Origin: Chrysomallon squamiferum
Lineage: Eukaryota; Animalia; Mollusca
Assembly: GCA_012295275.1 (NCBI GenBank)
Contig: CM022672.1
Location: 20,770,001 to 20,834,000 of the forward strand
Length of the DNA stretch: 64,000 bases
Direction of reading: 5' to 3'
The stretch's first letter is position 1, and every line of letters begins with the position of its first letter. Both the position numbers and the translations under genes were made by a program. The notes under the pieces were generated by a model that was not told the origin of the DNA, did not search any database, and saw only the letters and a list, made by a program, of their open reading frames with translations. Below, piece after piece: positions 159-63,999 of this stretch.

Positions 159-3100
159 CAGTCAAAGTGGACCATGCATTCTTGTTTTCACTGATGTTAC
201 AAGTTTGTGTTTGATTCTGTGGATTTGTGAAACCATCTTCATAACATTTTCCATCAACCATACAGATATCTTCCTGTAAATAACAACATTTTTATAACAT
301 TTCCATCAATCATAAAGATATCTTTCTGTAAACATCAAAAATATTTATAACTTACATGTAAGATGTTTAGACTACAAAAATACATATAGTTCCAAAAATA
401 TATGTATGTACTGACTAAAATGTATGCCTGTACTGGTTACAGTGTAATGATTACAGTGTATGTTATATTGACTAGAGTATATATATGTACTGACTACAAT
501 ATACAGTCAAAACTGGTCAAAAGGTCGCCTGACTATAACAGACATCACAAATACCACTAAAGCATTTTCTTCTTTTAATGACCTGTACAGAACTGTCACT
601 TGTCTATAACAACCAGTGGTCACTATTTTTCATGGAGAATCATCAACTGAACCTGATATAACAGTCACAGGATTTCAAAATTTGCAAATTCCACTATGTT
701 CTGACAGTCATAAGTGAAAAACAAACTTTCAGTCAATAACATCTCTGACATGATATTACAAAAATCCATGATGTAATTTGACTGGGTTTCAGTTGTTACA
801 GTTAAGTGTGTTGAAATACTGCATCAGCTAGTCTCAAAATGGGGTAATTTTTAAACATTTGTTTTCTTTGCATGTGGAATGACATGGAAAACAATGTAAA
901 TAACAATTTTAAAAACCGAACCAAAGCCCTTCCTGTTATTATTTACTAATGTGTTATTTCACACAAAAATATGTGTACTTCTCAGTGACATGGGTAATAT
1001 AGACTAAAGAAAAACTAATGTAATGGCCACTTTTGTGAAGTCCAATGGATGGATGTTACAGACAGGTTTAACTGCACGAGTTCTGACTACAGTGTGTGTG
1101 TATACTATAATGTATTGTGTATATATGTGTGTGTGTATGTGTGTGTGTGTTTTTATATGTAAATAAAATGGAGTTTCTAGATAGACTGACCCTTGCTGTA
1201 CATCCTTTTGTTTCTGTGCAGGTCTCACAGATGGAAGAGAATTTGATGAACTTGAGAGATTTACTAAACAATGTTCCATCATTGCTCACAGCTATCTGAT
1301 AAATATTCAGATTTGGATCACTGCATGTTACTTGGTCCTCACTGATAAATGTTGCATTTAAAGTCTTAGTATTTCCTTTTCTTTGTAATGATTTCTGTAA
1401 AAAAAAAAAATAATAATAATAATAAAAAAAAAATGAAAATATTAAATATATAGTTTTATAATTTTCTAGATTAAAAAAGTGTAAATAGAATGTATTTCCT
1501 TTATAATTTTTATATTTATTTGGTGTCTTAAACATTTGTATTAAATATCTCAATTATTATTTTCTTCAGATACGAAGATGTATGATAGTTTGTGTGGTGG
1601 TAACTGATCAGAAAATGAAAGTTTTCCACATCAAACCTAATAAAAGAATCTTACATCCAGCTCAGTGAACTGACAAACCAGAGTCTCAACCTCAACAAAG
1701 CCAAGCCCATAAATGGTGACATCAAAACAGTTGTGTTCGTCGATGTTGCAGAGACTGCCTCCCCTGACAGATAGAAGATTAGGAGGAATGCTTAGATCAA
1801 CTGAACAGTCTCCTCCGCCAAATCCTGTTTCACATTCACAGTTACCTGTAAAATAATTACATATCTTTTTACTTCTCTAATAAACTTAAAATACAGCTCT
1901 TGAAATACAGTCACTGACAAACTTAAAACAACAAATAAATGTATATTATTGTTGATATCTGACAAAAGAACATAAATGTTCTAATACACAACACACTCAC
2001 ATGCACACACACACACACACACACACAAATAGAGGCATATACAGACATACACAAATATATATATATATATATATATATAACAAACTTCTTAAACTCATTG
2101 ACTACTTACAAATAGAGGCAGTGATCACTTACACAGCCACACAATGACTACTTACAGTCACACAATAATGACTTACATACACAGTGACTACTTACAATCA
2201 CACAATAATGACTTACATACACAGTGACTACTTACAATCATCACTTACAAAGTGACACAATGACTACTTACAATCACACAATAATGACTTACATACACAG
2301 TGACTACTTACAATCATCACTTACAAAGTGACACAATGACTACTTACAATCACACAATAATGACTTACATACACAGTGACTACTTACAATCACACAATAA
2401 TGACTTACATACACAGTGACTACTTACAAAGTGACACAATGACTACTTACATTCAGTCACACGACTATTTACAATCACACAGTGAGTAGTAACTGATATA
2501 AAATGGACAGAACTGTAAAAAAAAAAAAAAAAACTTACCTTTTTCACACTTGCCATGTCCAGAGCAGTCATTCATACACAGTGACTACTTACAATCACAC
2601 AATAATGACTTACATACACAGTGACTACTTACAAAGTGACACAATGACTACTTACATTCAGTCACACGACTATTTACAATCACACAGTTAGTAGTAACTG
2701 ATATAAAATGGACAGAACTGTAAAAAAAAAAAAAAAACTTACCTTTTTCACACTTGCCATGTCCAGAGCAGTCATTCAGACAGATCTGTTGAACAATGAG
2801 AGGTAACTGTGGGAATCCATTGTCTCCTTCAATCCACAGCTCTACATTTCTTTCCACAGCAGTCAGACACTGCTCTCTGATGTTTTCCATTGTCACAGCA
2901 ACCCAGTCACGGTCTCCCGATATCTGGTAGAAAACACAGAAAAAAAAAACAATTACAAAAATGTAATTTTAGTTTAAAAGATTAAGGAATACAGCAAACA
3001 TCTACCAACTGACCACAAGTTTTTGTAATACTGCTAGTTTATATACAAGCTATATGAATATCTGTATGTGATATCAAGTCATAAAATATGAACAGTTTAA

Positions 3101-10356: not shown

Positions 10357-11114
10357 GAATGTAAGTAAATAAATAAGTAAGTAAGTAAGTAAATAAACAA
10401 AAACAATAAAAAACAAATAAACAAACAAATATGTTTTGATAGTTCTTAGGTGAATTATTTATTTATTCTTACCTGTTAGGATGTCCAGGGCCTTAGTGAT
10501 TTGTTTTGTGGCATATGTCACTTGCCAGAACTCAAGTTCAAAACTCCAGTATTTAGTAGTATTCACATTCTGTGGGTGGCCCATGTAAAACTTGCAGGAT
10601 TTGGGTTCCTTCACGCTGCGTTTGAGGAAATTTTTATCTTTCTTGGTTTCTTTTCCATCGATAGACATCTCAAGTCCAGTCTGTACACTCCATGATATTT
10701 GAAACTGCAGGTACTTATTCACTGCGATGTCACTCAGATAGACAGTCCACTCTCTGGACTGTGTGCTGACTGTGACAAAGAGTCGTTTTCTGAGGTAGTA
10801 CACAGCAATCCCCACCCCTTCTTTCTCCTCCCCGCAGTTTGTCATCAGATATGTGTTGTCCTCCAGAGTGACAAACTTCACAGAGAATGTGACAGTGAAA
10901 CCAAACTGACACTGATCAGGGTCCATCAGACACGAGCCAATCACATCTGTCCAGTCAATATACTGATCTCTGTCATTGAAAACTACTGCATGTTTGTTTC
11001 TTGTGTTGATGATTAGCTGCAGTTTGCTGGTAACAGTGACATTGCCAGACGATGTGATCAGAGTGTTCCCATTTATCAGTTTAAATTCAAATCTCCTGTC
11101 ATCAACTGCATCAA
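159..11114 (-). CDS. Module R8 (LamG + VWDE-like unit), 16 exons, 3027 nt
   Basis: Exons: 10473-11114 (LamG), 10068-10288, 9755-9847, 9184-9573, 8947-9023 (CMSVNDPHITTFDG), 8635-8698, 8043-8252, 7692-7806, 6993-7101 (GLCGTFNG), 6603-6766, 6253-6359, 3130-3273, 2743-2923 (CLNDCSGHGKC), 1655-1845, 1191-1394, 159-273. All phases are compatible. Confidence 0.88.
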
Positions 11115-14100
11115 CTGGAAAGTTGTAGTAATGAAAAATTAACTTTTTTTTTTAATTCAAAGATTCATTTTACATATTTGTTTTATATATATAAAATAGA
11201 ATGTATTCTATGTAATAATATTTGGATCTGCAACTAGTGTGGCTTGATATTTTGAGGTGTAACAAGCGTGACATGGTACAGTGACAATTAACAAGTATGA
11301 CATAGTACAGTGACATGTAACAAGTGTGGTATGATATACTGACATGTAAAAGTAACATGATATATTGACATGTAACAAGTGTGGTACGATATACTGACAT
11401 GTAACAAGTAACATGATATACTGACATGTGACAAGTGTAATAAGTGTAACTGTACACCAGTCTGTAAGAATATTGTGATGTGAAACAAGTGTAACTATAC
11501 ACTGACATGTAAGAACACTGATGTGAAACAAGTGTAACTATACACTGACATGTAAGAACATTGTGATGTGTAACAAGTGTAACTGTATACTAACATCTCA
11601 GTGAGGTCCAGTCTGTTTTAGAAATAACTGTTTGACACACTTGTCTTGGATCATCAGGATTAAAGAAGCCATTTTCATAACAAACATCTTTGATGATACA
11701 CACATCAGTCTGCAAAATATTTATTTCAGTACAGATAAAGACAGTGATAACATCATTTTGATGCAGAAAAAGGCAGTGAAAACATTATGTTAGTACAGAT
11801 AAAGAGAGTGATAACATTATTTCAATACAGATAGAGAAGTGATAACATTATTTTAGTTCAGATAAAAACATTGATAATATTTCAGTACAGATAAAGACAG
11901 TGATAAAAGTATCTTAGTACAGACAAAGACAGTGATAGCATTATTTTAGCTCAGATGCAGACAGTGATAAAATTATTTTGGTACAGATGAAGACAGTGAT
12001 AAAAGTATCTTAGTACAGACAAAAACAGTGATAACATTATTTTAGGCATTATTATCATCATAATTTGTTAAAAATGTTATGGTCATAGAAATCTACAACA
12101 ACAATAAAACTTTTAAAAAAAAAAATTCTTACCAGCAATAAAAAATATGTGACTTACCCTGTTTGAACATCCTTTCTGAACAGAGCATGTCTGACATACA
12201 GAATCAAAGCTGATAAATACTTGTGCATTGCTTCTTGTTTTCCCATTGTTGCTTATGGAGATGTTGAAAATGCCAAGTGCACTGACTCTGCATCTAACTA
12301 CCTCTGAGCTGTCAAAAACTGCAAGTGATGTTTGTTCTTTACCCTACAAAAATCACAAACTTGTACTGGTAACTTCTACACATGATGAAAACAAAATATG
12401 TATGTCAGAAACATAAAAAAAAAACAGAAAAACATAAAAATAAAGACAGAAAGTCAGAGACAGAGAGAGAGAAAGGAGAAAGACTGATTAAAGGGGAGAG
12501 AGAGTTATTACTTACATCTGATGAAATCAGATGACAAGTGAGTTGACCAGACTCAGCAAACTGCAGACCATACACTATGACCTCTGTACATTCAGCTTCA
12601 CGAATGTCACACACAGGCATGGCTAGAGACACAATTTGAGGTGAGGTTTCACTTGAGATGTCACAGACAGCACCTGTCCACCCATTGTTACATGTACACA
12701 CACCTGATTTATTAAAAGGAAATTAATTTTATTAAAATGTTTTGTTTTGTTTTATATTAGCTAACTATTATAATTTTAAACACACTTTTATAATGTATCA
12801 TGTATGAAACAATTAAACAAATGTTTCATCAGTTTCTATCCAAATGAATAAAAAGTACCAAAATTGTTGTTTTTTTTTTAGGGGTCTACTAATGGTAAAC
12901 ATTTATGTGATTTTACAAACATATATTAATATGATAAACATTTATGTGATATTTAATAACACTTTTGTGATATTTATTAAGATTATTTGTAATGTTTTTT
13001 AAAATAATTATTTGTTATATTTATTAAGATATATGTGATACTTACCACTGATACATGTTCCATGGTTGTTACAGTCATCAATACACATGTGGTTGGCAAA
13101 GTTAGGTAACTCCACTGTTCCTGTTTTGTCTGATGTAATCCACAAGTCAATGTTGATGCTGAGTTCCACCTCACAGAATAACATGATGTTGTCCAACATT
13201 AAACTCACCCACTCCAAGCTGTCTAGTATCTGTAGATAACAAATAAACAAATAAACAAACAAACAAACAAATAAATAAATAAGTAGTTTAATAAACAAAT
13301 AAACAAATAGATCAATAAAAAGTTTAATAAATAAATAAATTACAGGAAGAAGAAAAAGAAGAGGAAGAAACAAACAAACTTAAATAATAAAATATATTCA
13401 ATACAAATGAAGAAATAAAACAAATAAACAATTAAAAAATACAGAAAACTAAATATGATGTTCTGTTATTAAATTACCTGGATATCTTCAATGCATGAAT
13501 CCAGACTGAATTCTGCATCAATGGTAACCAGACTTTTACATGACTTGGCAGAAGCAGAAGCTTCTACAACAGCATTGCAGGCAGTCACAGCTCTTTCCCT
13601 GGTGATCTTTCCAGCAGTTGGCCATGTGAACTCCTAATTTGTTATTTATATTTTAACATAAAACATCTGTGTAACATTCACATACAGATTGCAGTATTAA
13701 AGTGCTATTTATTTTGTTCTTGTCAATTAATCAAATTGAAATGATGCAAACTGCTTTCTGACTGGCTATGATTACTGAGTCAGAAAGTATATGTCTTAGT
13801 AAGTATTAGTTTATTTAGAAAATCAATGTTTTCACACAAGATGATATTCGTTTTGCTTACACAAAAATATTTTAAATAGAGAGCATTGTAAGACAGTATA
13901 AAACAGGTTACCCTTGGTTTGTAATTGATGTCAAACTCCCACGGCACTACTTGTTGTGTAGGAATACACACATCAATCTTCTTGGCAACAGAAACTAGAG
14001 ACTCTGTGATGTCAACTGCACCTGTAATTAACTAAACTCATCAGAAAACAGCAAACTGTTAAAATGTTTTACTAACTGAGCATTTGGTTCTTATTAAGAC

Positions 14101-17100
14101 TATATTACTGAGTGTAAACATGCATGGCAGAAACTTTCATTTATAAACAGCATAATAGCATATACAATTCATTGTATGTTAAACATGATCAATATCAAAG
14201 TCTGCAAGTTTCTAACCCTTTTCAAGAGTTTTAGTTTTGCTCTGAGTACAAGACATGACATCCATGTTAGGTGCACACATCTTCTTTCTGTCCTGCAAAC
14301 AGTCACAGTACACAGTTAAATCTGTTTCTTTCACATCTTCTGCTTCAAAACATTTCCCATTGTAGAAACTGTCCTGTGAAGCCACCCTGTACAAATACAG
14401 TACAATTTATTTTTACATGTATTGTTCTTTATATCTGCACACTGCAAACTTTATAGTACAAATTTTTAAGCAACAGAATTATAGCATTAAACTAACTGTG
14501 CAAACTGCTGTGCACAACACATAAATACAGCTATGAAATATAATAATGAAAGATTACTAATTCCTAATGGAGCAAACTTTTGCTGCACTAATTCACTTAA
14601 GTATTTCATTCTAGGGGAAATCCTTAATTTTTGACATTCCAAAAATTATAATTGCTGCCGAGTAAGATAATGACTTTCATACTGCTCAAAAGGTCATGCA
14701 ACAGTAAGATACTTCATTCCAATAGATTAAAAAAAAAAAAATGAAAACAATTTTTTTTTTAGAAATAGTAATCATCACTAACCTCCAGCTATGAGAGAAC
14801 TCATCAGGTTGTTTCTGATTTCCTCCATACAGCTTTCCATCCAACTTGATAAAGTCATTTGACTTGTCTCCATCAAATGTTCCACACAGACCTAGTTATA
14901 TATATTTGTCAGTTATACATACACAGAACAAGTTAATACATATCAATAATAATATTCATCATGTAAATACATACACAAACCTTGTTTCACATTTAATTAA
15001 AATATTCATCATTTAAATACACATATGGACCTAGTTACATATTTAATTAAAATATTCATTATTTATATACATATACATATCTAGTTTCATGTTTAATTAA
15101 AACAAACAGGAAATCAATAGAAAATGAAATTGACGAATTTTGACTTGTTTACCTTCTCTATTCATGAAATTAAAAGAATATGAAATACTCAGCAAAATGA
15201 CTTCTTTACATTATGTTTTCATGAAATCAGTAGAAGAGGCTTTGTATAATCACAGTGAGGAATTTTGACTTGTTTACCTTCTGTATTCATGAAGTCAACA
15301 GAAGAAGCTTTGTACGAAACAGTGAGGAATTCTGCTGTTACTCCTCTCCCATACTGTACAGTAACAACCCCCCCTGTAGGCAGTATCACCTGAAAACAAA
15401 TAATACTTTTAACACGTTTCAGTATTTGTAGAGCACTGTTCAGGAACTGGATGCAGCTGTGTTAAATAATTGTCTTTTTTTTACATAGAATACAACTCTG
15501 TGTGTTTAAATCTTGTGTTTAAATTCTTTTGTGTTTAAATACTTGACATTATCTGTGCATATCTATTACTTTGTGTTAAAATACCTGATATTACCTAATA
15601 CTTTGTGTTTAAATACCTCATATTACCTAATACTTTGTGTTTAAATACCTCATGTTACCTGTATGCATGTATCTAATACTTCATGTTTTAATACCTGATA
15701 TTTCCGGCCTCCACTATGTCTGATTATCTGAGTTTGTGCAGTGAGCTCTCCATTCAGATACAAGCGTGGTATTATTGGTTGACGTCTGCCACCTTTCTGT
15801 GCTCCACAGCGATCAATGACAATGATATCATCTCCAGACTTGACAGCCACAGCACAGTTACATGAAGCTTTCCCATTGCAGTTACGCAGAAATGTTCTTA
15901 TCTGTAAAAAAAATATTTTATTAAAGACATTTCATTGCAGAAATAATGCTAATAATACTACTACTACTAATAATAATAATGATGATGATGATAATAATAG
16001 TAAAAACAACAATAACAATAATAATAATGATGATGATGATGATGCTAATGATGATAGTAATAAAAGTAATATGTCTGGTTGTGAGTTGTTAAATTATTGG
16101 CTACTTCCCATTCCAGATAAAGCTCATGATGCAGTTAGATGGGTAATAATTTATCAAGTTAGCTAGGTACTAAATGATAGTGTTTATTACACTCACCTCA
16201 TATGGCAGTGATTTGTGTCTGTAAAGAATGAACTCTCCTTCTAAGTAGTTGTTGTATCGTCTATAAAATAACAACATTCAGTTACTTACTCTTTGGTGCA
16301 TTGGTTCCATCCTTAAAATTAATCATAAACCAAAACAGTAATTTTTTCATGAAATCTCAATAAATTACATATTTATCCTTTTGAACAAGTGTGAATAAAG
16401 AAGAACTTACTTTTTGTCAAATGTTGTAAAATGAGGGTCACCAACAGACAGACAGACGGCTAACTTGTCTCTGTCCTTGACAGTCAGCTGTTAAAATATC
16501 GGTTTCATCTTTTTAGAAATATCTAATAATTTGTCTCACATTAAAGTGTCAGAATCTTAATATCTTTATTGTTTACAAATAAAACAAATTAATTATCTAC
16601 TATCCAGACAGGTTAATCTACTTCTGTATAAAACACTTCACAATTCCTTTGTCAAGAGATAAGTTTAACATATTTATATCTGTCATCAAAAATTACAATA
16701 GAATATCAAAATACCTTTAATAAATTACAAATTATATTTGACAAGTAATGTAATATATGTGTAGTTCTAAATTATTATTTTGGTTAAAAAATACTATTTA
16801 TACTAAAATGATTCACTAACATACCTCTATTTGTAAAATGTAACTGGACTATGAATACAAATGACCAATGACATAGATAAACATATGTGTATTATAAACA
16901 CAGGTAAAATACCTGGACATCTCCCACAGTGACACTTTGAACTTGCAGTTGTGACACGACAATGTTGGCAGTCACAGTGATTGTTCTCTTTCTGTCTCTG
17001 TCTTTCAAGCCATCAGTGGATCCCTTTCACTGCAATTCTCAGCACATCAGACCACTTTTCTGTCTGTATCTCAAATGTACATGCATCTCTGCCTCCTTGA

Positions 17101-20100: not shown

Positions 20101-22348
20101 GTCACACAAGTCACGTTTCAGTGACTCTAACGTTGGTGCTGCTGTAACAGTAACAGAACAGTCATCTCCAGCAAAGCCTTCCTCACAGTCACATGTTCCT
20201 GTAAAACGATTTCACAGTGAATTACATAACAAGACTTATTATAGATATTTGTCTCACTGTTACTACAGATAACAATACATAGCAAGACTTGTTATTGATA
20301 TGTTTCTCACTGATTCTGTAAACTGATTTAATTACATAATTTTGACTTGTTAGAGATATATTTCTCACTGTTACAACAGATAAAAATTAATAATTTTGAC
20401 TTTTTATAAATATGTTTCTCACTGTTACTACAAACAGATAATAAGACTTGTTATAGATATATTTTTCACTGTTACTAGAAACTGGTAATAATACATAACA
20501 ATAGTTGTTATAGATATATTTCTCACAATATTCTTGATAGTACAAGGCAGAAATAATTATAAAAATTTACACAACAATTTTAGAATTTCAATTATAGAAA
20601 ACTGTAAACAAATTTAATATTATCATTCAATGTACATTATAAACACAAAATTTTATCAGTTAAAGTGTGTTTCACACATAAATTTTATCACTATATTTTA
20701 TCATCAGTTGAAGACAAACCTTGTAGGCAGTTTCCATGTGTGCTGCAGTCACCTGGGCATATGGAGTTAAAAATGTCTGGCATGACTACTGAGCCATCCT
20801 GTCTGGTCAGCTGAGAAATGTCAAATGGAATCTTTATCAAACACTGCTCCTTGATGTTAGTTAGCATCTCCTCTGCCCAGGTCTTGTCATCAGTTAGCTA
20901 CAAATAACACATTATGAACACTTGTGTGTTGTTACTGTTATTATATATACAAACTATTCTACAAATAAACACATTATAAACACTGGTGTGTTGTTACTGG
21001 TACAAACTAACCTGCAATAAATACTTTTATAAAAAGAAACAAACTCGTACATAATTACAATTGAAACAACTTGTATGTCATGTTTTAATTATGAGTTAAT
21101 GTGTCTGATGTTAAAACAGCTCTTGAAGTATGTAATGAAAAATGATTGTGTGTGTATTGAAATCTCTAACCTGTATGTCCATGATACATGAATCAAGGGC
21201 TGTTTGGTAACTGGTTGCGATTGTTCCCAAACATCCACTGGCTGATGCAGATGCTTTTACAACTTTCTCACAGTATGCCTTCACATCAGCATACTCCATC
21301 CCACTTGGTGTAGGCCAGGCTGCCTCCTGGAAACAAGAGATAAAAGTTATAACTAATAAAATGACTAAGAAGTAACAACAAAAACATATTTTTAACAACT
21401 GATCAACACATTTGAATAAAATTGCTATGTTTGCATAACAGAGTAATCTGATAGAGCACTACTAGGAGCAGGGCTGCCTTAATAGCATTATAGGCTGCTA
21501 GGCACAGAAATACACTGGCACCCCTACCTAACAATGTTCACATGTAATAAAAATTAAAATGAATATTGTTCATTATCTTAGTAAAACACAAGTTAAATAT
21601 TCATTTTCAATAAAACATTAATTTAAAATTTAGTATAGCATAGCATTTATTTATTTACTCACAGAAAGTCAAAAATACATTTTGCCATCACAAATCTCAG
21701 TAATAATTGATAGATGAGAAAAGCTCAGTGGACAATTTAATGAGGACTATCCTGTGACTGCCACCATATTCTATGTATATGTACACTTACTGGAAAGACA
21801 TACTCGACATCATGTTCAAAGATTTCTTCCTGTTCAACACTGCCACATTTAGCTGGACTCACAGCCAAGTCAATCAATTCTTTTGTTATGTCTTCATCTG
21901 TAACAGGAGAGTTCATGCAATGTATTACAAAACAAATGACACTTTACGCAGTGGATATAATACATGGATACAATATTTATAATACTCTGCATTACAGGCA
22001 TAATAAATGTATAAATAATAATACTGTTACAAACATATCAAATGTAATGTAGATGTAAAGAGATGTAAGTTATGTCACTGTGTTAATTAGACGCATCTGA
22101 CTCACATCGTTTCCTATTTGTTCTGCTGCCAGTGTCTGCTGGTGGAGAACAGTCAAGGAGATACTTGGTGTCGCTGCAGCTGATGTCATGATTCTCACGA
22201 CAGTCACAGTACTCTGTCCAACTCTCAGCATCAGCATCATCAGGGCAGTAGCCATTGTACAGTGTGTCCTCAGTTTTTACTCTAAATTACATATCATACT
22301 GTGATTGTTTTTGTAACAATGACAACATTATCATCATCATCATCATCA

Positions 22349-22380
<32 letters not shown>

Positions 22381-53400: not shown

Positions 53401-54471
53401 CCAGCTTTTGGAAAATTTGTTTGGTTGATTAGCAAAGTTGGTGTTGCTGATGCCTGCTGGGTATTCATACAGTGACCCATCAGGCTGGGTAAAGTCATTT
53501 TGCTGGTTTCCATCAAATGTTCCACAAAGACCTGATAAATATTTAAATGTGATCAAAAGATTTTAAAAAAAATAAAAAGATAAAAATAATTCAGTACTGG
53601 AATAGTTATTATCTCTATCTGTAGAATGTTTCTTGATCAGCAAAATATATTTTTTATTATTACATATAACTTATAGATGCACATCACTTTGTGTATTGTA
53701 AATAAATTCAAATATCTCTTGTGCACTTCTAAAAGCAGTCTGTAGACACTAAAAATTAGAGTGGTAAGAGGAAGAATGAGTGGAAACATTATTTACCTTC
53801 TGTTTATTGAAATCCACTGCTGAGGGGGTCAGCCACACATTAAGAAAGTTGTATCCTTGTATAGCACTTCTGCTCACGTACACCATCATACCAGAAGGGA
53901 ACATTATCTGAAGATTATCATATTGTGATTACAAAAAAACAAGAACATATTATCTTATATTTACAGACACAAATACATCAGTATATTACATGATAGCTTT
54001 AAATACGATACCACCAAAATATTGTCCATTATTTATAAATGCACATACCATCAACATAATTATTTATAAAACCTGTATTATCAATATATTATCATAGTAA
54101 CATATCAGTTGTGACAAATAATGAATGAAGAAATGATAACTGAGCAATGTTGTAATTACCTGATACTCAATTCCTTCAAACTGACTGAATACTCGGAAGC
54201 CAGGAGTGAGAATTCCATTTCGAAACAGTTTTACCATGATGGGGTAAAATCCTTCTTTATTAAATGGTCCACACTTGTCAATAATGACAACATCATCACC
54301 AGCACGTGCTGCAACAGCACAGTTACAGGAAACTCGACCTGAACAGCTGCGGTAGAAAGTTCTCACCTAGAAGAATAAAAGAACATAAAATTAACATAAT
54401 GTTATTATTAACAGATGACTGTTTGTTTTCAGTGACCAATAACAATACAAATTTTTATAAACAATAAAAAA

Positions 54472-57500: not shown

Positions 57501-59547
57501 TAAATACAGATGAATCTTATATCTTTCTTTAATTAAAGTTTTCAACTGACAGTAGACACCACTGCCTTTACGTACCAATATACTGATAATGAGCATATAA
57601 ACAGTAATGTGCATGTCACAGCTGTTAGATAAATGTAATTATATGGTACAATGAACAGAAATCAGAGATGTCAAATTACAATATATAAAACATTTACGTT
57701 TTTCACAACTCCACTCTTCATAAACAAAGTGACTGCCAAAGGGGAGATAATAATGTCCAACATCAGTACGCCTGTACTTGGAAAGATGGCAGACCTGACT
57801 CTCAGAACTGAAATCAATGGACCGACAAAGAAAATGTGTTTCCTGCAGGCAGAGTTTGCGACAATCTTCAGACTGGTTGACGTTTGTCACTGACTTGTGA
57901 TTGTGGAAAGCTATGGCACTGAGTTCTGATTTCCACATAACAGCTGAATTTAGACACGGACCTGCAGCAAAAATATCTTTACTGACATTTTACCTTCTGA
58001 TTAAACATTGAAAACTGTGTACATCACTGCATAACACAGGATGAAAATGAAAGAAGAAAAAATGGAGTTAACAATAAATTTAGTGATTGTCTATTATACA
58101 CAGTTACAAATACATATATTATCTATTACTCAAAATTACAAATAAATGTATTGTCTTCTGCTCACAGTTACAAATAAACATTCTGTCTGGTACATACAGT
58201 TACAAATAAACTAACTGGTTCTTTGACTCCAGAGCTGTCTATTCTCGGTTGAGTTACAAATTTGAGAAAAGTTATTTGGGTTGATTTCTAGATGAGTCCT
58301 GCATCTTCCTTCAATCACGCATGTTTTGTCCTTTGATAAGAAATAATGTTTTGAATAACTCTACAGTAGTCTTACATCTTTTTTGTTGTAACAAATTTAT
58401 ATATATATATATATATATCGTTTTTTTAAAAATATAAATAAACACCAGAAGAATGTGCTTTTATATATTACAGACATCAGCATGTAAAACATGGATATGT
58501 AGGTCTATGTATCACTGTATCTGTTTGTATAATTGTGTATGTGTGTTATGGGTTATATTAGTATATGTTTATAAGTGTCATTGCAAGTATGTGTATTAGT
58601 ATGTATACTTATGTGTATTAGTGTATATGCATGGGTATTAGATATAAGCATGTGCATTAATATGTATATGGATGTTATTAGTGTACATGGATATGTACAT
58701 GTATTAGTTTGTATATGTAAATGTATTTGTATAGGTATATGTATTTGCATATATATGTGTATATATATATGTGTTTATATATGTGTTTATATACGTGTTT
58801 ATTGGTGTTTATATATGTGTTTATTGGTGTTTATGTATGTGTATATTAGTTTGTATATGTATATGTATGTGTATTAGTATGTATATGTAGTGTATTTGTA
58901 TACAAATGCATATATACACTGACACACACACACACATATATATACACTAATAGACAGATATATATTAATTATTATGTATAAGTGTATTAGTGTACATGTG
59001 CATTAGTATGTATGTACATTAGTATGTATGTGCATGTGCTTTAGTGTGTATATGCATGTGTATTAGTGTGTATATGTATGTGTATTAGTGTGTATATGTG
59101 TCTGTATTAGTGCATATGTATATGTATTAATGTTTATGTGTATGTGTATCATTGTGTATGTGTATTAGTATGTATATGTATCTGATTTAATCTGCTTGTT
59201 GTTTTATGATTAATACAGTATTTTCACAAACACAGAGTTACCTTCTGTGAGCAGTTTCCTTGTTTAGCATCACACGTGTAACACACAGGGTTGTATGCCA
59301 GGAAGATGTGGGCTGCACTGCGAGTGAGAACTCTGTTCTCCACACTGATGATGTAGTTCCCTGTCTTTGGAAGTGAACACTCGATGTGACTGTCACTAAT
59401 AAAAAGAGTAGTGACTGCTTCATGCCACTCACCCTCAGTCTCATAGCCTGATTCACTAACCTGCATTTACAATATATATATATAAACACATTACTTACAC
59501 TGTTACAAAAATTACCTAAATACTTATTTATATAAATATATATTATG

Positions 59548-59583
<36 letters not shown>

Positions 59584-62500
59584 CATACATATACATTTAC
59601 ACACATATACATTATTATTTATCTATACATATATGCACATATATGTTATTATTAAAACATTATTAGAAAAAATAAACATATTATACATTAGTTTATCATG
59701 TCACAAAATTACTTGTCAGGAAAATTCTCATTACTGTTATTTACTCTCTAAATAAATATTTTATTCTATATTACCATATTATGCAATATATAAATGTACA
59801 TACATTGATTTGTCGATAATAGCATCGAAGTTGTCTGCTCTTGACAAAAGTGTGACCATAGACATGGACAGTCTGACAGTTGGATGTGAGTACATTACAG
59901 AGACCTGAGTACGACAGACGTGTCACAGTGGGTGCAAACTTTGAGTTTACTGAGCAGTCGACACCAATGTAAGGTTCAGAACACACACAAACACCTGTCA
60001 CAAAACAAATAACATACTACTTACTACATGACGTACAGTTCAAAACACACAGACACCTGTCACAAAACAAATAACATACTACTTACTACATGACGTACAG
60101 TTCAAAACACACAGACACCTGTCACAAAACAAATAACATACTACTTACTACATGACATACAGTTCAAAACACACAGACACCTGTCACAAAACAAATAACA
60201 TACTACTTACTACATGATGTAGGGTTCAAAACACACAGATACCTGTCACAAAACAAATAACATACTACTTACTGATGTAAAATAATTCGCAGAGAAGAAA
60301 ACAGATACCTGTCAGAAAAACATTTAAACATTTTACTACTGAATGAGAAATGTTACAAAAAGTTAACTGTTTACTGTTAATGCATTTGCCATTGCTGCTG
60401 CATGAGTTAGGACAGATCTGCTGGAGTGCTGCTGTCTTCTCTGCCTGCCATTTGAGGTTGTATGTCAGTTCATGTTTACAGCTTTCCTCCAGAGAGTCCA
60501 CCAGCACACTTGACCATTGGCTATCATTGGTCAGCTAAATAAAACAGAAAATTTCATTTTCTGTAAAAACTATTTTTACAAAGTTTAGTAATAAAATGGT
60601 ATTTTAAAGTAACAATGATGTTCAGTTATATTAATTATAATGAGTTTATAAAAATGCAGAAATATATTTTATGTTTTACAGAAATTTTGTAAATAACACA
60701 TATAAGTAATTGTAAAACAGACAGCTGTTGCTTAGTAAAACATAAAAGCAATTAATTTGGAGAAAACTTAGAACTCTTACACAGTAAAACATCATACTGA
60801 AATATTTTAGACAGAGCACATTAAAAAACATACAAAGATATTTTAGATAAAACACAATTTAAAACAACAGACTAAAATATTTTCAACAAAACACACATTA
60901 AAAACATCATAGTAAGATATTTCAGAAAAAAGACATTAAAACATCACACAAAAAATATTTTAACAAAAGCCCTTACACGTATGTCATTCATACAGTTTGT
61001 TATTTTCTCTTCAGTCAAAACTTGTGTGAATGTTTTACAAATGGTTGACAGTGGTGATTTTTCTAGAACCTGTGTACAGTATGCACGGGAAGAGTTGTCT
61101 GTCCATGGATAGGGGTAGTCTATCTCAGACTGAAAATAATGACACAGAGTTAAAAAATATATTAATTACATTAAAGATTTATACATACTAAACTAAAAAA
61201 ATTATAAAAAAATTTATTTTTTGTTTGAATTAATACAAAATTTGTTTATTAAACTACAAAAATCTTTCCTAATGACCTGGACAAAGAGTAACTGTTTCCT
61301 CACTTCTCAGTAAATATGTGATATATTAGACTATATATGTATATGTAACTGGACTATCAGACACATTAGAATTGTTTTCTAAATAACTTACACTTGGTGC
61401 CTGTGCTGTAGCATTGTAATCAAACTCATCAATTTTGTTCACTGCAGCAACACAGTTCAGTGCATGTTTGGCATTCTTCTTCAGCAGTGATGTGATGTCA
61501 TATTCTACAACACAGATATGTTATTACTCTCCTGTGCTTTCATATATTACAATATAAATGTTTCATTATTATCACATGATGTTATAATCTATAATATATA
61601 TTTTTTACTCTTCTCTGTTTTGATATACAGTGGTACCTCGACTTACGAGTACCCCAACTTATGAGTTTTTCATTTGAGGTGTGAGCCAAAATCCAAGTTA
61701 TGAGTGAGCTTCTGATATGCCACTGCTAGCTGGCACAACAAACAACATAATATCTGACCAGCATCCTGTGTGTCACATTTGCATCACATGGTTACCTCGC
61801 CACGGAAGCATCTCTGTTGTGTTGTGCTCACATTTTTTGCAGTATTTTGACAAATTTCTTTTTTCTGACTGTGGATCATAAGAAAGTGAGTGCAAAGGAC
61901 AGTGCTGAGAAGAAGAAGTGGATGATGTGCTTTGAATTAAAGCTTGAATTCATAGAAATACGAGTGAGGTGTGTAGTCAACTTGCCTTGTCAGGATGAGG
62001 GTAGTATGTCTGTGGTATGTACCATACTGAAGCAGAAGGAGTCGATAAAGGCTGTAACTCCAGCCAAAGGCATTAGAATACTTTATCTGATCTCCAAGAT
62101 AAATACACTTTACAAAACCGATTTATTTCTTTACATTCTCTTTTATTTTGTTTTTATGCAAAATTTGTCATTTATAAATACATTTTTCTTATTTAAAAAC
62201 ACATTACAAAACAAAATGGGGTGGATTTTAGGGGGCTGGGACAGATTAATGTTATTTCAATTAATTTCAGTTGGGAAAATTGATTTGATGTATGAGCAAA
62301 TTGAGATACAAGCTCGGTCACAGAACAAATTAAACTTGTAAGTCAATGTACCACTGTATTACCACAAAAAGTATTACTATCAGGTGATGTCATGCTCTAC
62401 AACATAAAAATATTATATCATAATTATATTATTTATATTACTAAATCTTAGCATAATATTATATATATTATCAAATCTTTATATTATCTGAATCTAAGTA

Positions 62501-63999
62501 TATTGCAATGTTTTAGTGTGTACAGTCTAAGTATATTAATGTTATGTTTTAGTGGGTATAGTCTAAATATGTTAATGTGATGTTTTAGTGTGCAGTCTAT
62601 ATAATTATACTAATGTGACATTTTAGTGTGTGTTATCTATATATATTAATTGGATGTTTTAGACTGTTTAGTCTGATCACTGTAAAATTAATAGAGTAAA
62701 CATGTAAATGTGTAATCAAATGTAAATTCACAACTTATCATCTGTGAAACAGGTTATAACACTAAGTATTTCTTCCACAGTTACTTAAAACAACAAGCTA
62801 TAAACATCTTACTCAAATTAATTATCAGTAAAACAATCTGTATGAAGTAATATGTAAAAATATGTATTGTAATGTGCTCACCATTAATACTGTGCAGATG
62901 TATTGTACTGTTAACACTGTGTACATGTTTACTATTAATACTGAGTAGATGTATGTACTGCAATGTACTCACTGTTAACACTGTAGATGTACTGTGCTCA
63001 CTGTTAACACTGTTTTGATGTGTTGTGCTCACTATTAGCACTGTAGGTGTATTATATAGACTATTAACACTGTGTAGATGTACACACAATTAACACTGCA
63101 TTGATGCACTCACAGTTAACACTGTGTAGATATGCCACTCACCTGTCTGGTATCTGCTGTACAAGTGACAGGTCTGTATTCCCAGTGATGAAGAACACCG
63201 AGGCTGGTCAGACTGACAGGCACAGTCTGTGGTCAGTGGCACTGAGACTGGTGTGCTTTTACCTGGACACTGCCCATTGTAGATGCTGTCCTCTTTGCTC
63301 ACTCTGAAAGTGTGACTAAATTTTCATTTCATGCTACAGTGCTAATAACAAGATAAGAATTGCACATAAAAGTAATTTCAAAAATCTGATAGTAAATGTT
63401 GACTATTTATATATAAAAAATAATAATAATAAAAAAAAATACCTCCATTTTAAACTTGTAGCTTCATCTATCTCATCATTGTCTGCATCTGCATCATAAC
63501 TGCCACACAGTCCTAGAATATTAAAATAATTCCCTGCCTTTAATATATGCTGTGAAGATCTCACTGAAGCAACGTTCAATTTGTTTTCGTATTTCTTAAT
63601 ATAATCTGATGTAACATAAACATAATGGACTGATTTGATGTTCTTTTTAAAATTAAACTTTTCACACTGAGAAGACTTGTAAATACAATTCAGTATGTTC
63701 AGAGTTGTTCATGTTTAATGGCTGCAAAATTTTCGAATACCTTAAGATTAAATATTATTATTATTCTTTTTTTTTTTTATCTACACATTTCTCTGTCATA
63801 TCTTTTAAAAATATTTATTATAATCATGTTTAAAATATTTATTTATTGATTTATTTAACTTCATTAATACAGAAATACATAAGATGTGATTAATACCTTC
63901 TGTGTTGTTGAAATCAAGTGGTGATGGGTAAAACCATAAGTTTATAAAATTCATGAAGCTCTCTCGAACAACAAGGAATGCACCCGTGGGGAAAACCAC
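159..63999 (-). CDS. VWDE: Giant multi-exon VWDE-like (von Willebrand factor D and EGF domain) protein, internal portion; about 118 exons, about 6,800 aa in the window, 8 tandem modules, 5' and 3' ends outside the window
   Basis: Hand-traced GT-AG exons chain with matching phases from 63999 to 159. Recurrent VWD motifs: C-x-S-[VI]-[NG]DPH-x-TFDG, YxNxxEGEF, CNCAVAV-x-xDD, NVW...D...TEGLCG-x-[FY][DN]. EGF motif C-x-NDCSGHG-x-C...C-x-C-xx-G[FWY]-x-GxDCS. No stop codon or signal peptide between modules. The symbol indicates family resemblance only, not orthology. Confidence 0.85.
504..1074. mobile_element. Degenerate non-autonomous Tc1/mariner (pogo/Tigger-like) DNA element in an intron
   Basis: The left end is TA|CAGTCAAAACTGGTC. 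The reverse complement of the right end is CAGTTAAACCTGTCT, an imperfect TIR. Subterminal tgtctataac-like repeats are present. The right TSD is degenerate (CA). Confidence 0.5.
2125..2778. repeat. Intronic minisatellite (about 38-bp unit tgactacttacaatcacacaataatgacttacatacacag) with a 204-bp duplication that includes an exon end and donor
   Basis: Tandem copies are visible. 2539-2574 duplicates exon sequence 2743-2778 together with its GTAAGT donor. Confidence 0.85.
3855..5505 (+). mobile_element. Decayed TIR DNA transposon (probably Tc1/mariner-pogo/Fot1-like) inserted in the largest intron
   Basis: The left end agagaaggagggtgtaagtggtgcc matches the reverse complement of the right end, agagaggagggggtaagttgtgtc. 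An internal broken coding remnant at about 4520-4710 reads DFVVVKVAGKPSSKHCIARVDVVDEDEFEFVFLQ...DIIYKLPKP. The same minisatellite flanks both sides. Family assignment is inference. Confidence 0.6.
5530..6270. repeat. 54-bp minisatellite derived from the exon donor junction at 6253; degenerate copies also at about 3590-3850
   Basis: The unit is gatataaaatatacagtgtgtttacaactgatgttatagtgttatagagaaact. ORF 5970-6323 shows the matching 18-aa periodicity. Confidence 0.88.
10473..11114 (-). CDS. LamG/concanavalin-A-like domain cassette exon (phase 1-1, 642 nt)
   Basis: QYIDW...SCLMDPDQCQFGFTVTFSVKF...YLMTNCGE...GIAVYY...WTV...ISWSVQTGLEMSIDG. This matches the LamG-like pattern seen in invertebrate extracellular proteins. 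Confidence 0.8.
11270..12045. repeat. Two degenerate minisatellites flanking exon 11595-11709
   Basis: tactgacatgtaacaagtg-type repeats at 11270-11594, and a roughly 32-bp agtacagataaagacagtgataacattatttt repeat at 11725-12045. Confidence 0.75.
11595..18659 (-). CDS. Module R7 (LamG + VWDE-like unit), 15 exons, one +1 frameshift at about 17023
   Basis: Exons: 18021-18659 (LamG), 17487-17797, 16913-17297, 16411-16487 (CLSVGDPHFTTFD), 16197-16260, 15695-15901, 15278-15389, 14783-14891, 14217-14386, 13912-14021, 13478-13633, 13046-13229, 12516-12703, 12158-12343, 11595-11709. Confidence 0.87.
18021..18659 (-). CDS. LamG/concanavalin-A-like domain cassette exon (phase 1-1, 639 nt)
   Basis: ALLLDGKHDFVDFG...CLGNLALCKFGLTVSFKLK...YIFSSG...FSWSQQAGLSLYFNG. 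Confidence 0.82.
18921..26924 (-). CDS. Module R6 (LamG + VWDE-like unit), 17 exons, 3054 nt
   Basis: Exons: 26289-26924 (LamG), 25956-26182, 25385-25477, 24963-25186, 24491-24659, 24134-24210 (CSSVNDPHITTFDG), 23977-24040, 23407-23616, 22730-22841, 22459-22567, 22106-22281, 21791-21897, 21171-21326, 20720-20897, 20008-20198, 19134-19343, 18921-19035. Confidence 0.88.
25505..25985. repeat. Degenerate 45-50-bp tandem repeat derived from the donor junction at 25956
   Basis: Copies of (c)ttacattagtttcatactgccagcctgta. The translation repeats the exon end: WQYETDV, QYETNV and WQNETNV versus the true WQYGTN|gtaag. Confidence 0.82.
26289..26924 (-). CDS. LamG/concanavalin-A-like domain cassette exon (phase 1-1, 636 nt)
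   Basis: PDHCSIGFLLKFYIKF...YILTTGGD...GIAVYY...VSWSKTLGLEVDVNG...LVIGG. Confidence 0.8.
27405..34268 (-). CDS. Module R5 (VWDE-like unit, no cassette), 14 exons, one -1 frameshift at about 33503
   Basis: Exons: 34045-34268, 33804-33896, 33129-33532, 32673-32749 (CKSINDPHITTFDG), 32494-32557, 32026-32232, 31614-31725, 31221-31329, 30467-30633, 29694-29965, 29169-29349, 28825-29018, 28218-28421, 27405-27519. Confidence 0.87.
27603..27782. mobile_element. hAT-family MITE (180 bp) with a perfect 8-bp target-site duplication
   Basis: TIRs are CAGTGGTGCCCA and TGGGCACCCCTG. The TSD ATTTATTG occurs at 27595-27602 and 27783-27790. Confidence 0.88.
30070..31000. repeat. Two intronic minisatellites flanking exon 30467-30633
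   Basis: About 38-bp aataaaatatgtctatcatgttttaaat repeats at 30070-30440, and about 31-bp ttaacagtaacatattttagtattaatgt repeats at 30645-31000. Confidence 0.8.
34365..34652. mobile_element. Possible degenerate hAT-like MITE within a (TA)n tract
   Basis: The right end is ...tccagcagccctg (rc CAGGGCTGCTGGA) and the left end is taggctactaga. Both flanks are TA microsatellite. Support is weak. Confidence 0.3.
34745..40375 (-). CDS. Module R4 (VWDE-like unit, no cassette), interrupted by the assembly gap, one -1 frameshift at about 37178
   Basis: Exons: 40149-40375, 39465-39557, 38778-39161, 38535-38611 (CSSVNDPHMKTFDG), 38094-38157, 37673-37885, 37115-37225, 36741-36834, 36076-36242, 35730-35821, an exon starting at 35629 that runs into the gap, 35247-35427 (5' part in the gap), 34745-34859. 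Confidence 0.85.
35428..35627. other. Assembly gap (200 N, placeholder length)
   Basis: A run of exactly 200 N. Both flanks are inside exons, and module R4 lacks exons present in the other modules. Confidence 0.97.
40631..49803 (-). CDS. Module R3 (2x PAN/apple + divergent VWDE-like unit), 17 exons, 2898 nt
   Basis: Exons: 49531-49803 and 49103-49366 (PAN), 48490-48725, 48016-48108, 47418-47813, 46704-46780 (CKSVGSSHITTFDG), 46150-46213, 45007-45216, 44490-44601, 43831-43894, 43510-43676, 42797-42897, 42410-42562, 41987-42158, 41411-41598, 41065-41277, 40631-40745. Confidence 0.87.
42955..43525. repeat. 28-bp minisatellite derived from the donor junction at 43510
   Basis: About 20 copies of the unit gagatgatactgatgttgttgatattaa. 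The junction itself reads gagatgatac|ctaatgttgttgatatg. Confidence 0.88.
45295..45955. repeat. 52-bp intronic minisatellite, about 12 near-identical copies
   Basis: The unit is aatgagtttgttaatgttatcttcttactgataaatagctgatgtgttttac. Confidence 0.92.
46805..47178. repeat. 26-bp intronic minisatellite
   Basis: About 14 copies of the unit cacatcagtgttcatacaaaacactt. Confidence 0.9.
49103..49803 (-). CDS. Two PAN/apple domain cassette exons (49531-49803, 49103-49366; each phase 1-1)
   Basis: C-x3-C-x5/7-C-x-S-x-x-x...C-x-L-S pattern: ECRRLCLQETSFLCRSLEF...CSLS and HCHRACLEKYSSPYICSSVSV...CLLS, each ending YxEWxC. Confidence 0.82.
49815..50255. repeat. About 40-bp AT-rich intronic minisatellite
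   Basis: The unit is catgttaattttaaattaaataagttaactttaaatcaa. Confidence 0.85.
50302..57961 (-). CDS. Module R2 (2x PAN/apple + VWDE-like unit), 17 exons, one -1 frameshift at about 53804
   Basis: Exons: 57698-57961 and 57056-57301 (PAN), 56662-56888, 56214-56306, 55666-56082, 55029-55105 (CMSINDPHMTTFDG), 54511-54574, 54160-54366, 53797-53907, 53399-53531, 53051-53199, 52793-52905, 52267-52425, 51746-51935, 51340-51530, 50673-50888, 50302-50416. Confidence 0.87.
52570..52790. repeat. 27-bp intronic minisatellite abutting the donor at 52793
   Basis: The unit is aagaaagataatgatatggcaatgttt. It produces the MFKKDND pseudo-ORF. Confidence 0.88.
55440..55660. repeat. 24-bp intronic minisatellite abutting the donor at 55666
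   Basis: The unit is ccagtgaaatgagtagtagtaata. Confidence 0.85.
57056..57961 (-). CDS. Two PAN/apple domain cassette exons (57698-57961, 57056-57301; each phase 1-1)
   Basis: DCRKLCLQETHFLCRSIDF...CHLS...YEEWSC and ICQQLCDSDEACTSVKF...CILS...YQKRIC. Confidence 0.82.
58216..63999 (-). CDS. Module R1, C-terminal half (end of VWD, C8-like, EGF, IPT-like, linker), 9 exons; continues beyond the window
   Basis: Exons: 63897-63999 (VVFPTG...FINLWFYPSPLDFNNTEG), 63443-63512 (GLCGSYD), 63143-63303, 61392-61504, 60977-61129, 60375-60534 (CPNSCSSNGKC), 59804-59994, 59242-59460, 58216-58330. Confidence 0.87.
59974..60320. repeat. 62-bp tandem repeat that multiplies the 3' splice site and start of exon 59804-59994
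   Basis: About 5 copies of gttcaaaacacacagacacctgtcacaaaacaaataacatactacttactacatgacgtaca. Confidence 0.92.
61628..62356 (+). mobile_element. Internally deleted Tigger/pogo (Tc1/mariner) DNA transposon
   Basis: TA TSDs at 61626-61627 and 62357-62358. 23-bp TIRs: CAGTGGTACCTCGACTTACGAGT versus rc CAGTGGTACATTGACTTACAAGT. The remnant of the transposase N-terminal HTH (KKVSAKDSAEKKK...ELKLEFIE...TILKQKESIKAVTPAKG) lies in ORF 61817-62341. Confidence 0.88.

Follow-up and report, generated by a model that had tools for sequence, protein, structure and literature searches.

We analysed a 64,000-nucleotide stretch of the genome of the mollusc Chrysomallon squamiferum (GCA_012295275.1, contig CM022672.1, positions 20,770,001 to 20,834,000; the whole stretch is called the window). 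Its minus strand carries what is almost certainly one gene, coding for tandem copies of a module related to VWDE and, between some of the copies, PAN/apple and LamG-like domains. All positions are those of the window.

Gene model and exon series

The window is AT-rich (GC 30-34%), and its single N run is 200 N long (35428-35627). Exon families were found by self-comparison of stop-to-stop frames, and the exon borders were then set by splice-site scoring. In the self-comparison, minus-strand exon families recur 7-9 times. The gene model comprises 117 exons with 20,483 nt (6,828 codons), all on the minus strand, in agreement with a sequence-only reading of this DNA that had proposed a giant protein of more than 6,800 residues in the window. 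Donors are GT in 116/116 cases, and the acceptors are all AG except one that is lost in the N gap. The median intron length is 301 bp.

A complete module consists of exons A to O in a fixed order and with fixed phases. Every module, every PAN exon, and every LamG exon is in phase 1 at both ends. By the logic of exon shuffling, such symmetric ends let units duplicate or insert without damage to the frame. At the 12 boundary junctions of modules and spacers, the introns measure 106-498 bp, and the phases match at all 12. The modules and spacers, in the direction of transcription, are as follows:

58216..63999, minus strand: m1, 3' half, nine exons G-O (63999-63897, 63512-63443, 63303-63143, 61504-61392, 61129-60977, 60534-60375, 59994-59804, 59460-59242, 58330-58216); the gene enters from the window edge
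57961-57698, 57301-57056, minus strand: PAN/apple pair after m1, each phase 1-1, Pfam PAN_1 41.4 and 34.6 bits
50302..56888, minus strand: m2, 15 exons A-O, 821 residues (56888-56662, 56306-56214, 56082-55666, 55105-55029, 54574-54511, 54366-54160, 53907-53797, 53531-53399, 53199-53051, 52905-52793, 52425-52267, 51935-51746, 51530-51340, 50888-50673, 50416-50302)
49803-49531, 49366-49103, minus strand: PAN/apple pair after m2, phase 1-1, Pfam PAN_1 26.4 and 35.2 bits
40631..48725, minus strand: m3, 15 exons, 787 residues, VWD start GSSH instead of xDPH (48725-48490, 48108-48016, 47813-47418, 46780-46704, 46213-46150, 45216-45007, 44601-44490, 43894-43831, 43676-43510, 42897-42797, 42562-42410, 42158-41987, 41598-41411, 41277-41065, 40745-40631)
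35730..40375, minus strand: m4, exons A-J, adjoining m3 directly across a 255-bp intron (40375-40149, 39557-39465, 39161-38778, 38611-38535, 38157-38094, 37885-37673, 37225-37115, 36834-36741, 36242-36076, 35821-35730)
34745..35426, minus strand: post-gap exons N (partial) and O (35426-35247, 34859-34745)
27405..34268, minus strand: m5, 14 exons (J+K fused), 806 residues, separated from the preceding O exon by a 476-bp intron and no spacer (34268-34045, 33890-33804, 33532-33129, 32749-32673, 32557-32494, 32232-32026, 31725-31614, 31329-31221, 30633-30467, 29965-29694, 29349-29169, 29018-28825, 28421-28218, 27519-27405)
26289..26924, minus strand: LamG/concanavalin-like exon after m5, 636 nt, phase 1-1; no Pfam match alone, aligns with the other two
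18921..26182, minus strand: m6, 16 exons (exon C split by an extra intron), 806 residues (26182-25956, 25477-25385, 25186-24963, 24659-24491, 24210-24134, 24040-23977, 23616-23407, 22841-22730, 22567-22459, 22281-22106, 21897-21791, 21326-21171, 20897-20720, 20198-20008, 19343-19134, 19035-18921)
18021..18659, minus strand: LamG-like exon after m6, 639 nt, Pfam Laminin_G_3 E 4e-5, 24.2 bits, below the cut-off of 27.6
11595..17797, minus strand: m7, 14 exons (A+B fused), 792 residues, the sole module with canonical GDPH (17797-17487, 17297-16913, 16487-16411, 16260-16197, 15901-15695, 15389-15278, 14891-14783, 14386-14217, 14021-13912, 13633-13478, 13229-13046, 12703-12516, 12343-12158, 11709-11595)
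10473..11114, minus strand: LamG-like exon after m7, 642 nt; no Pfam match alone, aligns with the other LamG-like exons
159..10288, minus strand: m8, 15 exons, 795 residues; the gene exits the window in the intron after exon O (10288-10068, 9847-9755, 9573-9184, 9023-8947, 8698-8635, 8252-8043, 7806-7692, 7101-6993, 6766-6603, 6359-6253, 3273-3130, 2923-2743, 1845-1655, 1394-1191, 273-159)

All four PAN exons score above the Pfam PAN_1 cut-off of 21.4 bits. As the sequence-only reading had it, the gene continues past both window edges: it enters within m1 and exits after exon O of m8. The seven module junctions listed there all match our exon borders; five of the seven, however, lead into PAN or LamG-like exons and not into the next module. 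That reading had missed the four PAN exons, the three LamG-like exons, four frame breaks, and the N gap with a probable hidden module.

Exon sizes are well kept. Exon O has 115 nt in 8/8 copies, exon D 77 nt in 7/7, and exon E 64 nt in 7/7, exactly the counts proposed before. A 93-nt exon had been counted six times; this size of exon B occurs in five copies, another copy has 87 nt, and one is fused to exon A. As a chance control, leave-one-out profiles recovered 102 of the 106 repeated exons at E<0.01, and the reversed-window open reading frames gave three decoy matches summed over all 106 profile runs. The recurring exon series with conserved sizes and phases is thereby confirmed. Copies also differ in their introns: an extra intron interrupts exon C of m6 (25186-24491), J and K are fused in m5 (29965-29694), and A and B are fused in m7 (17797-17487).

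The modules comprise 787-821 residues. Pairwise identity between window copies is 28-39%, and 40 cysteine columns are kept in at least six of eight modules, so the copies are indeed diverged and cysteine-conserving. With X placed at the frame breaks and the gap, the model reads 6,830 residues with 0 stops; as had been noted, neither a stop codon nor a signal peptide lies between modules. Within this translation, no hydrophobic stretch rises above KD19 1.57, and no region rich in Pro, Thr, and Ser (PTS) is found (maximum P+T+S fraction 0.36 per 50 residues). It contains 72 N-glycosylation sequons and 4.8% Cys.

Domains and predicted fold

Pfam VWD is above cut-off in 20/20 homologues scanned, including a 62%-identical Gigantopelta protein. 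Single F exons of the window do not match VWD (0/7); the domain spreads over five exons. Generally, single-exon Pfam scans gave no match at E<=0.1 for 12 of 20 exons and nothing relevant for the seven F exons. Ig_VWDE (PF25776; cut-off 28.1 bits) scores 59.8 bits in Aplysia P0045, 35.9 in Elysia, and 33.4 in Pecten; exon AB of m7 alone reaches 22 bits (E 1.5e-4), which is below the cut-off. Vwde (PF26129) appears in the precomputed annotation of homologues P0001, P0002, P0004, and P0045-P0050. No C8, TIL, or cystine-knot match and no NIDO, AMOP, or Sushi match to Pfam was obtained in the 20 homologues. Pfam places one EGF per module, directly after the helical part.

The module is predicted to fold as one compact unit of an Ig-like domain, a second β-sandwich, VWD, C8-like helices, EGF, and IPT/TIG. 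An AlphaFold2 model of the Gigantopelta m7 orthologue (23-row alignment) has a pLDDT of 85.2 and a pTM of 0.83. The D3 assembly of MUC2 overlays its residues 251-658 (243 aligned, Z 24.7, rmsd 3.1), and so do MUC5AC, VWF, and FCGBP (Z 17-25 across D assemblies). Residues 665-756 match the TIG domain of CAMTA1 (Z 10.2, rmsd 2.6, 85 aligned). A β-sandwich is also predicted for residues 1-107 and for 108-250, with middling matches (Z ~9); the best ones for 108-250 are pilus chaperone β-sandwiches at Z ~9. Exon C folded alone gave a poor model (pLDDT 52.7), and when one exon C served as the query for homologues, 96 candidates yielded none; exon C may resemble bacterial Calx-beta-like repeats. The VWDE-like character proposed for each module is borne out by Pfam VWD, Ig_VWDE, and Vwde on orthologues and by the D-assembly fold; the PAN and LamG spacers come in addition.

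At least seven VWD starts lie in the window. They read NDPH in 5/7, GDPH in 1/7 (m7), and GSSH in 1/7 (m3). The 77-nt exon had been named after a DPH motif; the size holds in all seven copies and the motif in six, the seventh reading SSH. The m7 orthologue in Gigantopelta has GDPH as well. VWD domains are known to undergo autocleavage at GDPH, which in FCGBP requires Asp and His (accessible part of PMC10880436).

Module orthology across molluscs

We built a tree of 48 modules (788 columns, LG+G4, SH-aLRT), leaving out six short module fragments; FastTree agrees with it. Each of the eight window modules groups with its counterpart at the same position in other gastropods (SH-aLRT 98-100):

m1: with the first module of Biomphalaria and Aplysia, SH-aLRT 100
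m2: with module 2 of Biomphalaria, Elysia, and Pecten, SH-aLRT 100
m3: with Aplysia b and Elysia b, SH-aLRT 99.9
m4: with Aplysia module c, SH-aLRT 99.4
m5: with Aplysia e, SH-aLRT 99.9
m6: with Aplysia f, SH-aLRT 98.4
m7: with Gigantopelta and Aplysia g, SH-aLRT 99.8
m8: with Aplysia h, SH-aLRT 100

Pecten module 3 joins the m3 group at 58 only, and modules of oyster and of the cephalopod Argonauta take no firm window position (support 25-78). Because of this low support, we claim position orthology for gastropods and Pecten module 2 only. Positional orthologues in Aplysia or Biomphalaria are 33-43% identical, as high as or higher than the 28-39% between window copies. Hence, the duplications predate these species splits, and module order was kept. 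The sequence-only reading had suggested old duplications under selection, which this module-by-module orthology supports. By the tree, the giant gene is conserved across gastropods and at least partly in bivalves.

Relatives and full-length architecture

A profile of the seven F exons returned 44 proteins in one search and 368 cluster representatives in another. The named relatives come from molluscs, annelids, nemerteans, brachiopods, and one bryozoan. The closest is Gigantopelta aegis LOC121384400 (P0001), 62% identical over 1,530 residues and collinear with m6-LamG-m7; m6 itself is 64% identical to its Gigantopelta orthologue. A search for longer proteins returned six. Further multi-module pieces were found in Elysia, Bulinus, Bradybaena, Crassostrea, and Argonauta.

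Biomphalaria P0004 (signal peptide, F5/8, module, two PAN, module) is collinear with the start of the model: its residues 540-1932 align with model residues 1-1416 at 37% identity. Hence, m1 is probably the first module. From this alignment, about 540 residues (signal peptide, F5/8, and the start of m1) should lie upstream of the window. Signal peptide and F5/8 start the orthologues P0004, P0018, and P0053. Pecten LOC117339037 has the order M1 end, PAN2, M2, PAN2, M3, M4 start.

Three Aplysia RefSeq models, LOC101855535 (P0053, 1,554 residues), LOC118477191 (P0045, 4,956), and LOC106014199 (P0046, 4,490), share one scaffold length and tile from M1 to a transmembrane (TM) helix. The models break within module 2 and within a LamG domain, where 38 identical residues are common to two of them. 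The tiled protein has about 10,927 residues and 11 modules, in the order signal peptide, F5/8, M1, PAN2, M2, PAN2, M3, M4, M5, M6, LamG, M7, LamG, M8, LamG, M9, LamG, M10, LamG, Thr/Ser stalk, M11, TM, tail. The stalk measures 283 residues, the TM helix has KD 3.35, and the tail is 57 residues long. TM and tail occur in two of three Aplysia isoforms. A C-terminal hydrophobic peak above KD19 2.2 is present in 13 of 16 shorter one- or two-module relatives, and the Tubulanus relative has two modules and a TM. The label "secreted-type" in the sequence-only reading is, therefore, probably wrong for the main form. For the gene studied here, we infer by orthology about 2,450 residues beyond m8: LamG, module, LamG, Thr/Ser stalk, module, TM, and tail.

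RNA evidence

The reads came from three RNA runs of one study and from run X4, whose kind is unrecorded, all with the same organism label; positions 9001-29000 of the window were examined. Record 17 joins LamG 18338-18021, exon AB 17797-17487, and exon C 17297-16913 with no letters between them. Record 14 joins LamG 26493-26289 to exon A of m6, followed by a 92-letter stretch, which matches exon B in length, and then by exon C1. Several records carry extra letters upstream of LamG exons that are compatible with exon O by length alone. RNA thus shows LamG spliced into the next module at two joins (m6, m7). Among the best-supported 40 of 715 read differences, 37 are exonic, with 16 synonymous, 21 missense, 0 stops, and none at Cys, which is weak evidence.

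Frame breaks and the N gap

Four exons are one base out of frame, each at a run of 1-3 identical bases; they are listed first, followed by the N gap:

53797..53907, minus strand: m2 exon G, 111 nt, one base short at a short A run, frame break in the assembly
37115..37225, minus strand: m4 exon G, 111 nt, one base short at a short G run, frame break
33129..33532, minus strand: m5 exon C, 404 nt, one-base frame break near the 5' end
16913..17297, minus strand: m7 exon C, 385 nt, extra base at 17025, absent in RNA run X3 and run X4
35428..35627, no strand: 200-N assembly gap interrupting "module 4" and hiding at least exons K-M and the start of N

As the base at 17025 is left out in both runs, the break in m7 exon C is an assembly error. 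The gap was assessed by comparison with other species. Aplysia, Elysia, Bradybaena, and Bulinus carry a module d, and no counterpart of d is seen in the window. The post-gap exons score best against module d of Aplysia, Elysia, and Bulinus (201, 190, 189), compared with 156, 166, 180, 168, and 144 against module c; the margin is modest, over 98 residues. The same scoring picked the positional orthologue for all six other modules that had one in the set. As the post-gap exons are nearer to d than to c, the gap probably hides about 980 codons, namely the end of module c and most of module d. The window would then touch nine modules.

Interpretation

We read the window as the middle of one spliced mollusc gene for a type I membrane glycoprotein of about 11,000 residues, which would tether mucus, matrix, or neighbouring cells (probability roughly 0.6). 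Its parts differ in strength. A membrane-anchored main form of about 11 modules is probable from the orthologues, whereas the role as a surface tether is put at somewhat under even odds. The ectodomain would be a long, rigid, N-glycosylated, multivalent beaded rod that projects from the epithelial surface. A short O-glycosylated Thr/Ser stalk would carry it above the TM helix and a short tail. F5/8, PAN, and LamG are known glycan- or protein-binding modules; here, they would bind glycans or partner proteins, while the disulfide-locked VWD modules would set reach and valency. In this way, the rod would link the cell to an extracellular layer or to a surface opposite. The ectodomain may be set free by Asp-Pro autocleavage or in the form of an anchorless isoform that is made by alternative 3' splicing. 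The gene may have originated from a single-module membrane protein with the same two ends and grown by internal duplication of phase 1-1 units; the single-module type would persist in molluscs, brachiopods, nemerteans, and annelids.

The tether function is drawn from domain families, and signal peptide and anchor are drawn from orthology. Several points weigh against this reading. The TM end of the giant is known from one species, in predicted RefSeq models, and support is weak (81) for the grouping of the last Aplysia module with relatives from brachiopods and nemerteans, so that this end could be a fusion with a neighbouring paralogue. Aplysia isoform X3 (3,773 residues) stops within the Thr/Ser stalk and lacks both the last module and the TM. 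No database record above 4,956 residues was found (one search spanned 2,693-5,000 residues; the best 150 of another reached 3,858). Read-supported joins between units in this organism are confined to LamG-to-module, the RNA is from one study and shallow (bin depth 0-10) with some contigs running into introns, and the read check of frame breaks covers one of four (17025).

The alternative that survives best, itself rather unlikely, keeps the same gene and takes the working product to be a scaffold of mucus, adhesive, or shell matrix that is secreted or shed, through an anchorless isoform or Asp-Pro autocleavage, and acts as a multivalent cross-linker like FCGBP. Aplysia isoform X3 fits it, as do GDPH in m7 and its Gigantopelta orthologue, NDPH in five of seven window copies, the superposition of the VWD-helical core on mucin and FCGBP D assemblies, the 72 sequons, and the 4.8% Cys. 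However, the hydrophobic C-terminal helix in two of three Aplysia isoforms and 13 of 16 shorter relatives speaks against it, as does the lack of C8, TIL, and cystine-knot Pfam matches (0/20 homologues). Cleaved GDPH fragments of FCGBP reportedly remain disulfide-linked (PMC8267560), which also weighs against it.

By analogy, the protein could instead be a signalling or junction receptor, similar to RGM, a co-receptor that bears a VWD, or to Mesh, a protein of insect septate junctions. We consider this improbable. Aplysia does have a short tyrosine-containing tail, NPxY occurs in three of the paralogue tails examined, and the VWD of RGMB is among the fold matches (Z 11.2). Yet the tail of the Aplysia giant itself has no NPxY, NIDO, AMOP, and Sushi have 0/20 Pfam matches, and an ectodomain of about 11,000 residues would be hard to fit into a narrow junction. 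Vertebrate VWDE is required for blastema growth (accessible part of PMC7390686), which would suit a receptor.

That the modules belong to separate VWDE-like genes in tandem, or to several genes of medium size, is very unlikely. Current annotations do split the locus, in Aplysia into three models and in Bulinus and Pecten into at least two; the database holds only pieces, none found above 4,956 residues, and none of the read-supported joins here is O-to-A. These points are countered by the lack of any stop or signal peptide between modules, by short phase-matched introns at 12/12 boundary junctions, and by RNA spliced across two LamG-to-module joins. Furthermore, the Aplysia models break inside a module and a LamG domain, not at boundaries, and the predicted proteins P0002, P0003, P0045, P0048, P0049, and P0051 contain direct module joins. 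A decaying pseudogene, which might be suspected from the four frame breaks of one base each in 20.5 kb of coding DNA, can practically be dismissed in view of 117 exons with no nonsense codon, the existence of spliced RNA, the break at 17025 that is absent from RNA and run X4, the position of all four breaks at 1-3-base runs, and, as weak evidence, the absence of stops and Cys changes among the 37 exonic read differences.

Comparison with known proteins

VWDE: VWDE has one VWD. On its orthologues, the giant shows the same core of Ig_VWDE (PF25776), VWD (PF00094), Vwde (PF26129), and EGF, and the nearest Atlas clusters are Vwde+VWD proteins (scores 0.76-0.88, to be read as a lead only). In contrast to VWDE, the giant repeats the core about 11 times, with one EGF per module and without a terminal EGF array. 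Its orthologues start with signal peptide and F5/8, not with D8C (PF23283), which is present on 89-100% of members in four of the nine VWDE Atlas clusters listed. PAN and LamG spacers and the TM end in the Aplysia orthologue are further differences. No named vertebrate VWDE was among the proteins returned by the F-exon profile and longer-protein searches. VWDE is described as VWD plus a variable number of EGFs in the accessible part of PMC7390686.

D-assembly proteins: The VWD and the helical C8-like part superpose on FCGBP, VWF, and gel-forming mucins (Z 17-25). The giant's module is, however, about 800 residues long, has EGF and IPT in place of TIL-E, and is preceded by two β-sandwiches. A VWD-C8-TIL repeat is absent, as the helices are C8-like by fold only. 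The large PTS region and C-terminal cystine knot of mucins are also missing, and the Aplysia giant ends in TM and tail. FCGBP likewise has many tandem VWDs, 13 according to the accessible part of PMC10880436. It has GDPH in most of them, whereas the giant has it in one of seven and carries a predicted membrane anchor. By analogy, the giant may work like FCGBP or a membrane mucin.

MUC4: In MUC4, a single VWD is accompanied by NIDO and AMOP and by a PTS region of great length, and proteins of the MUC4/Mesh/SUSD2 type generally have NIDO and/or AMOP before a single VWD. The giant shares with MUC4 a VWD with GDPH, a Thr/Ser-rich segment, and a predicted TM. In contrast to this type, it carries several VWDs, its stalk of about 280 residues adjoins the last module, and no NIDO or AMOP match was seen in 20 homologues. 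Judged by domain content, the giant has a VWDE core but falls outside the VWDE, D-assembly, and MUC4-type architectures. The accessible part of PMC10880436 describes MUC4 as a transmembrane mucin bearing a VWD with GDPH.

Smaller relatives: Lottia LOTGIDRAFT_170497, Lingula "mucin-17", Tubulanus LOC141899868, and Mytilus LOC127733493 have the same module, LamG spacers, and, as in the Aplysia giant, a C-terminal hydrophobic helix with a short tail. The Lottia and Lingula proteins start with signal peptide and F5/8, like the giant's orthologues. They differ from the giant in having one or two modules, 1,800-2,800 residues, and no PAN pairs, and are also uncharacterised.

Earlier mention: Lang et al. 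(2016; PMC4948705), in the part of the paper accessible, devote one sentence and a figure to a lophotrochozoan multi-VWD protein of unknown function without VWD-C8-TIL. In their Fig. S4, the label PAN_1 is given to Lottia XP_009061402, Aplysia XP_005089140, and Crassostrea EKC34871. Multiple VWDs, the lack of C8-TIL, PAN_1, and the occurrence in molluscs are shared with the giant. These entries are probably fragments of the giant gene, matched by description and not by sequence. Full architecture, VWDE link, module orthology, and TM end do not appear in the accessible part of that paper. Giant multi-VWD glycoproteins are already a known kind, and fragments of this one were probably noticed in 2016. 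The sequence-only reading had called the architecture unrecognised; a multi-VWD protein had been mentioned, while a full description was not found in the literature (subscription papers and bioRxiv supplements lay outside the scope, and proteome supplements may use other identifiers). Six LOC identifiers of orthologues are absent from the literature searched.

A wider proposal is tentative, and we hold it to be rather doubtful: shelled molluscs would share an overlooked 11-module membrane protein of about 11,000 residues, with the order of its individually specialised modules kept since before the gastropod-bivalve split, which strings VWDs in a third way beside VWF/mucins and FCGBP and anchors a mucus coat or periostracum-forming matrix to the epithelium. 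If true, few known cell-surface proteins would be larger, and in the genomes checked it would be broken up into "uncharacterized" pieces. Which proteins keep mucus and organic matrices attached to the molluscan body surface is poorly defined; a conserved membrane-anchored VWD polymer of about 1.2 MDa would be a concrete candidate for this attachment. The VWDE core would be a duplicable folding unit of about 800 residues with symmetric phase-1 ends. This bears on vertebrate VWDE, a blastema factor whose mechanism is given as unknown in the accessible part of PMC7390686. The gene model also accounts for and corrects split models in Aplysia, Bulinus, Pecten, and Gigantopelta, and it points to four indels in this assembly and to a gap whose stated size is probably too small.

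Intronic repeats and other observations

Many minisatellites in the introns border directly on exons, and some of them reproduce the exon edge together with its splice site, which creates decoy splice sites. In one example, a 205-bp unit duplicates the EGF-bearing m8 exon at its 3' end, donor included. The minisatellites lie at:

234-351
2368-2782
11435-11596
11721-12044
30638-30966
31690-31900
44600-44759
50407-50554
56297-56437
59974-60273

The intron upstream of the true exon H of m3 holds short decoys (43975-43940, 44056-44015) that duplicate the beginning of exon H and a piece of exon I. In the largest m1 intron, a 196-codon stop-free frame on the plus strand (61751-62341) has no Pfam match. 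Run X4 has a depth of ~790 at 27677-28343 compared with 50-230 elsewhere, which suggests a high-copy repeat in that intron. Eight clustered differences in exon K of m7 (13513-13565), at full depth and common to two RNA runs and run X4, suggest a divergent haplotype or a local assembly error.

A tblastn search over 16 further loci gave matches in 15, of which 14 were short and exon-sized and one was a continuous single-module match; none of them informs the module junctions. The single-module match lies on a 4.5-kb metagenome contig (L004:872-3523) at 27% identity and is an intronless or spliced relative. Two JGI open reading frames, P0105 and P0003, together span modules b-c-d without introns and possibly represent one spliced transcript from an Aplysia-like gastropod. 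Finally, residues ~369-509 of the Gigantopelta RefSeq "TMTC4-like" TPR model P0021 correspond to exons 76% identical to m8. P0021 is probably a chimeric gene model, and a TMTC4-like gene may adjoin the giant gene in Gigantopelta.

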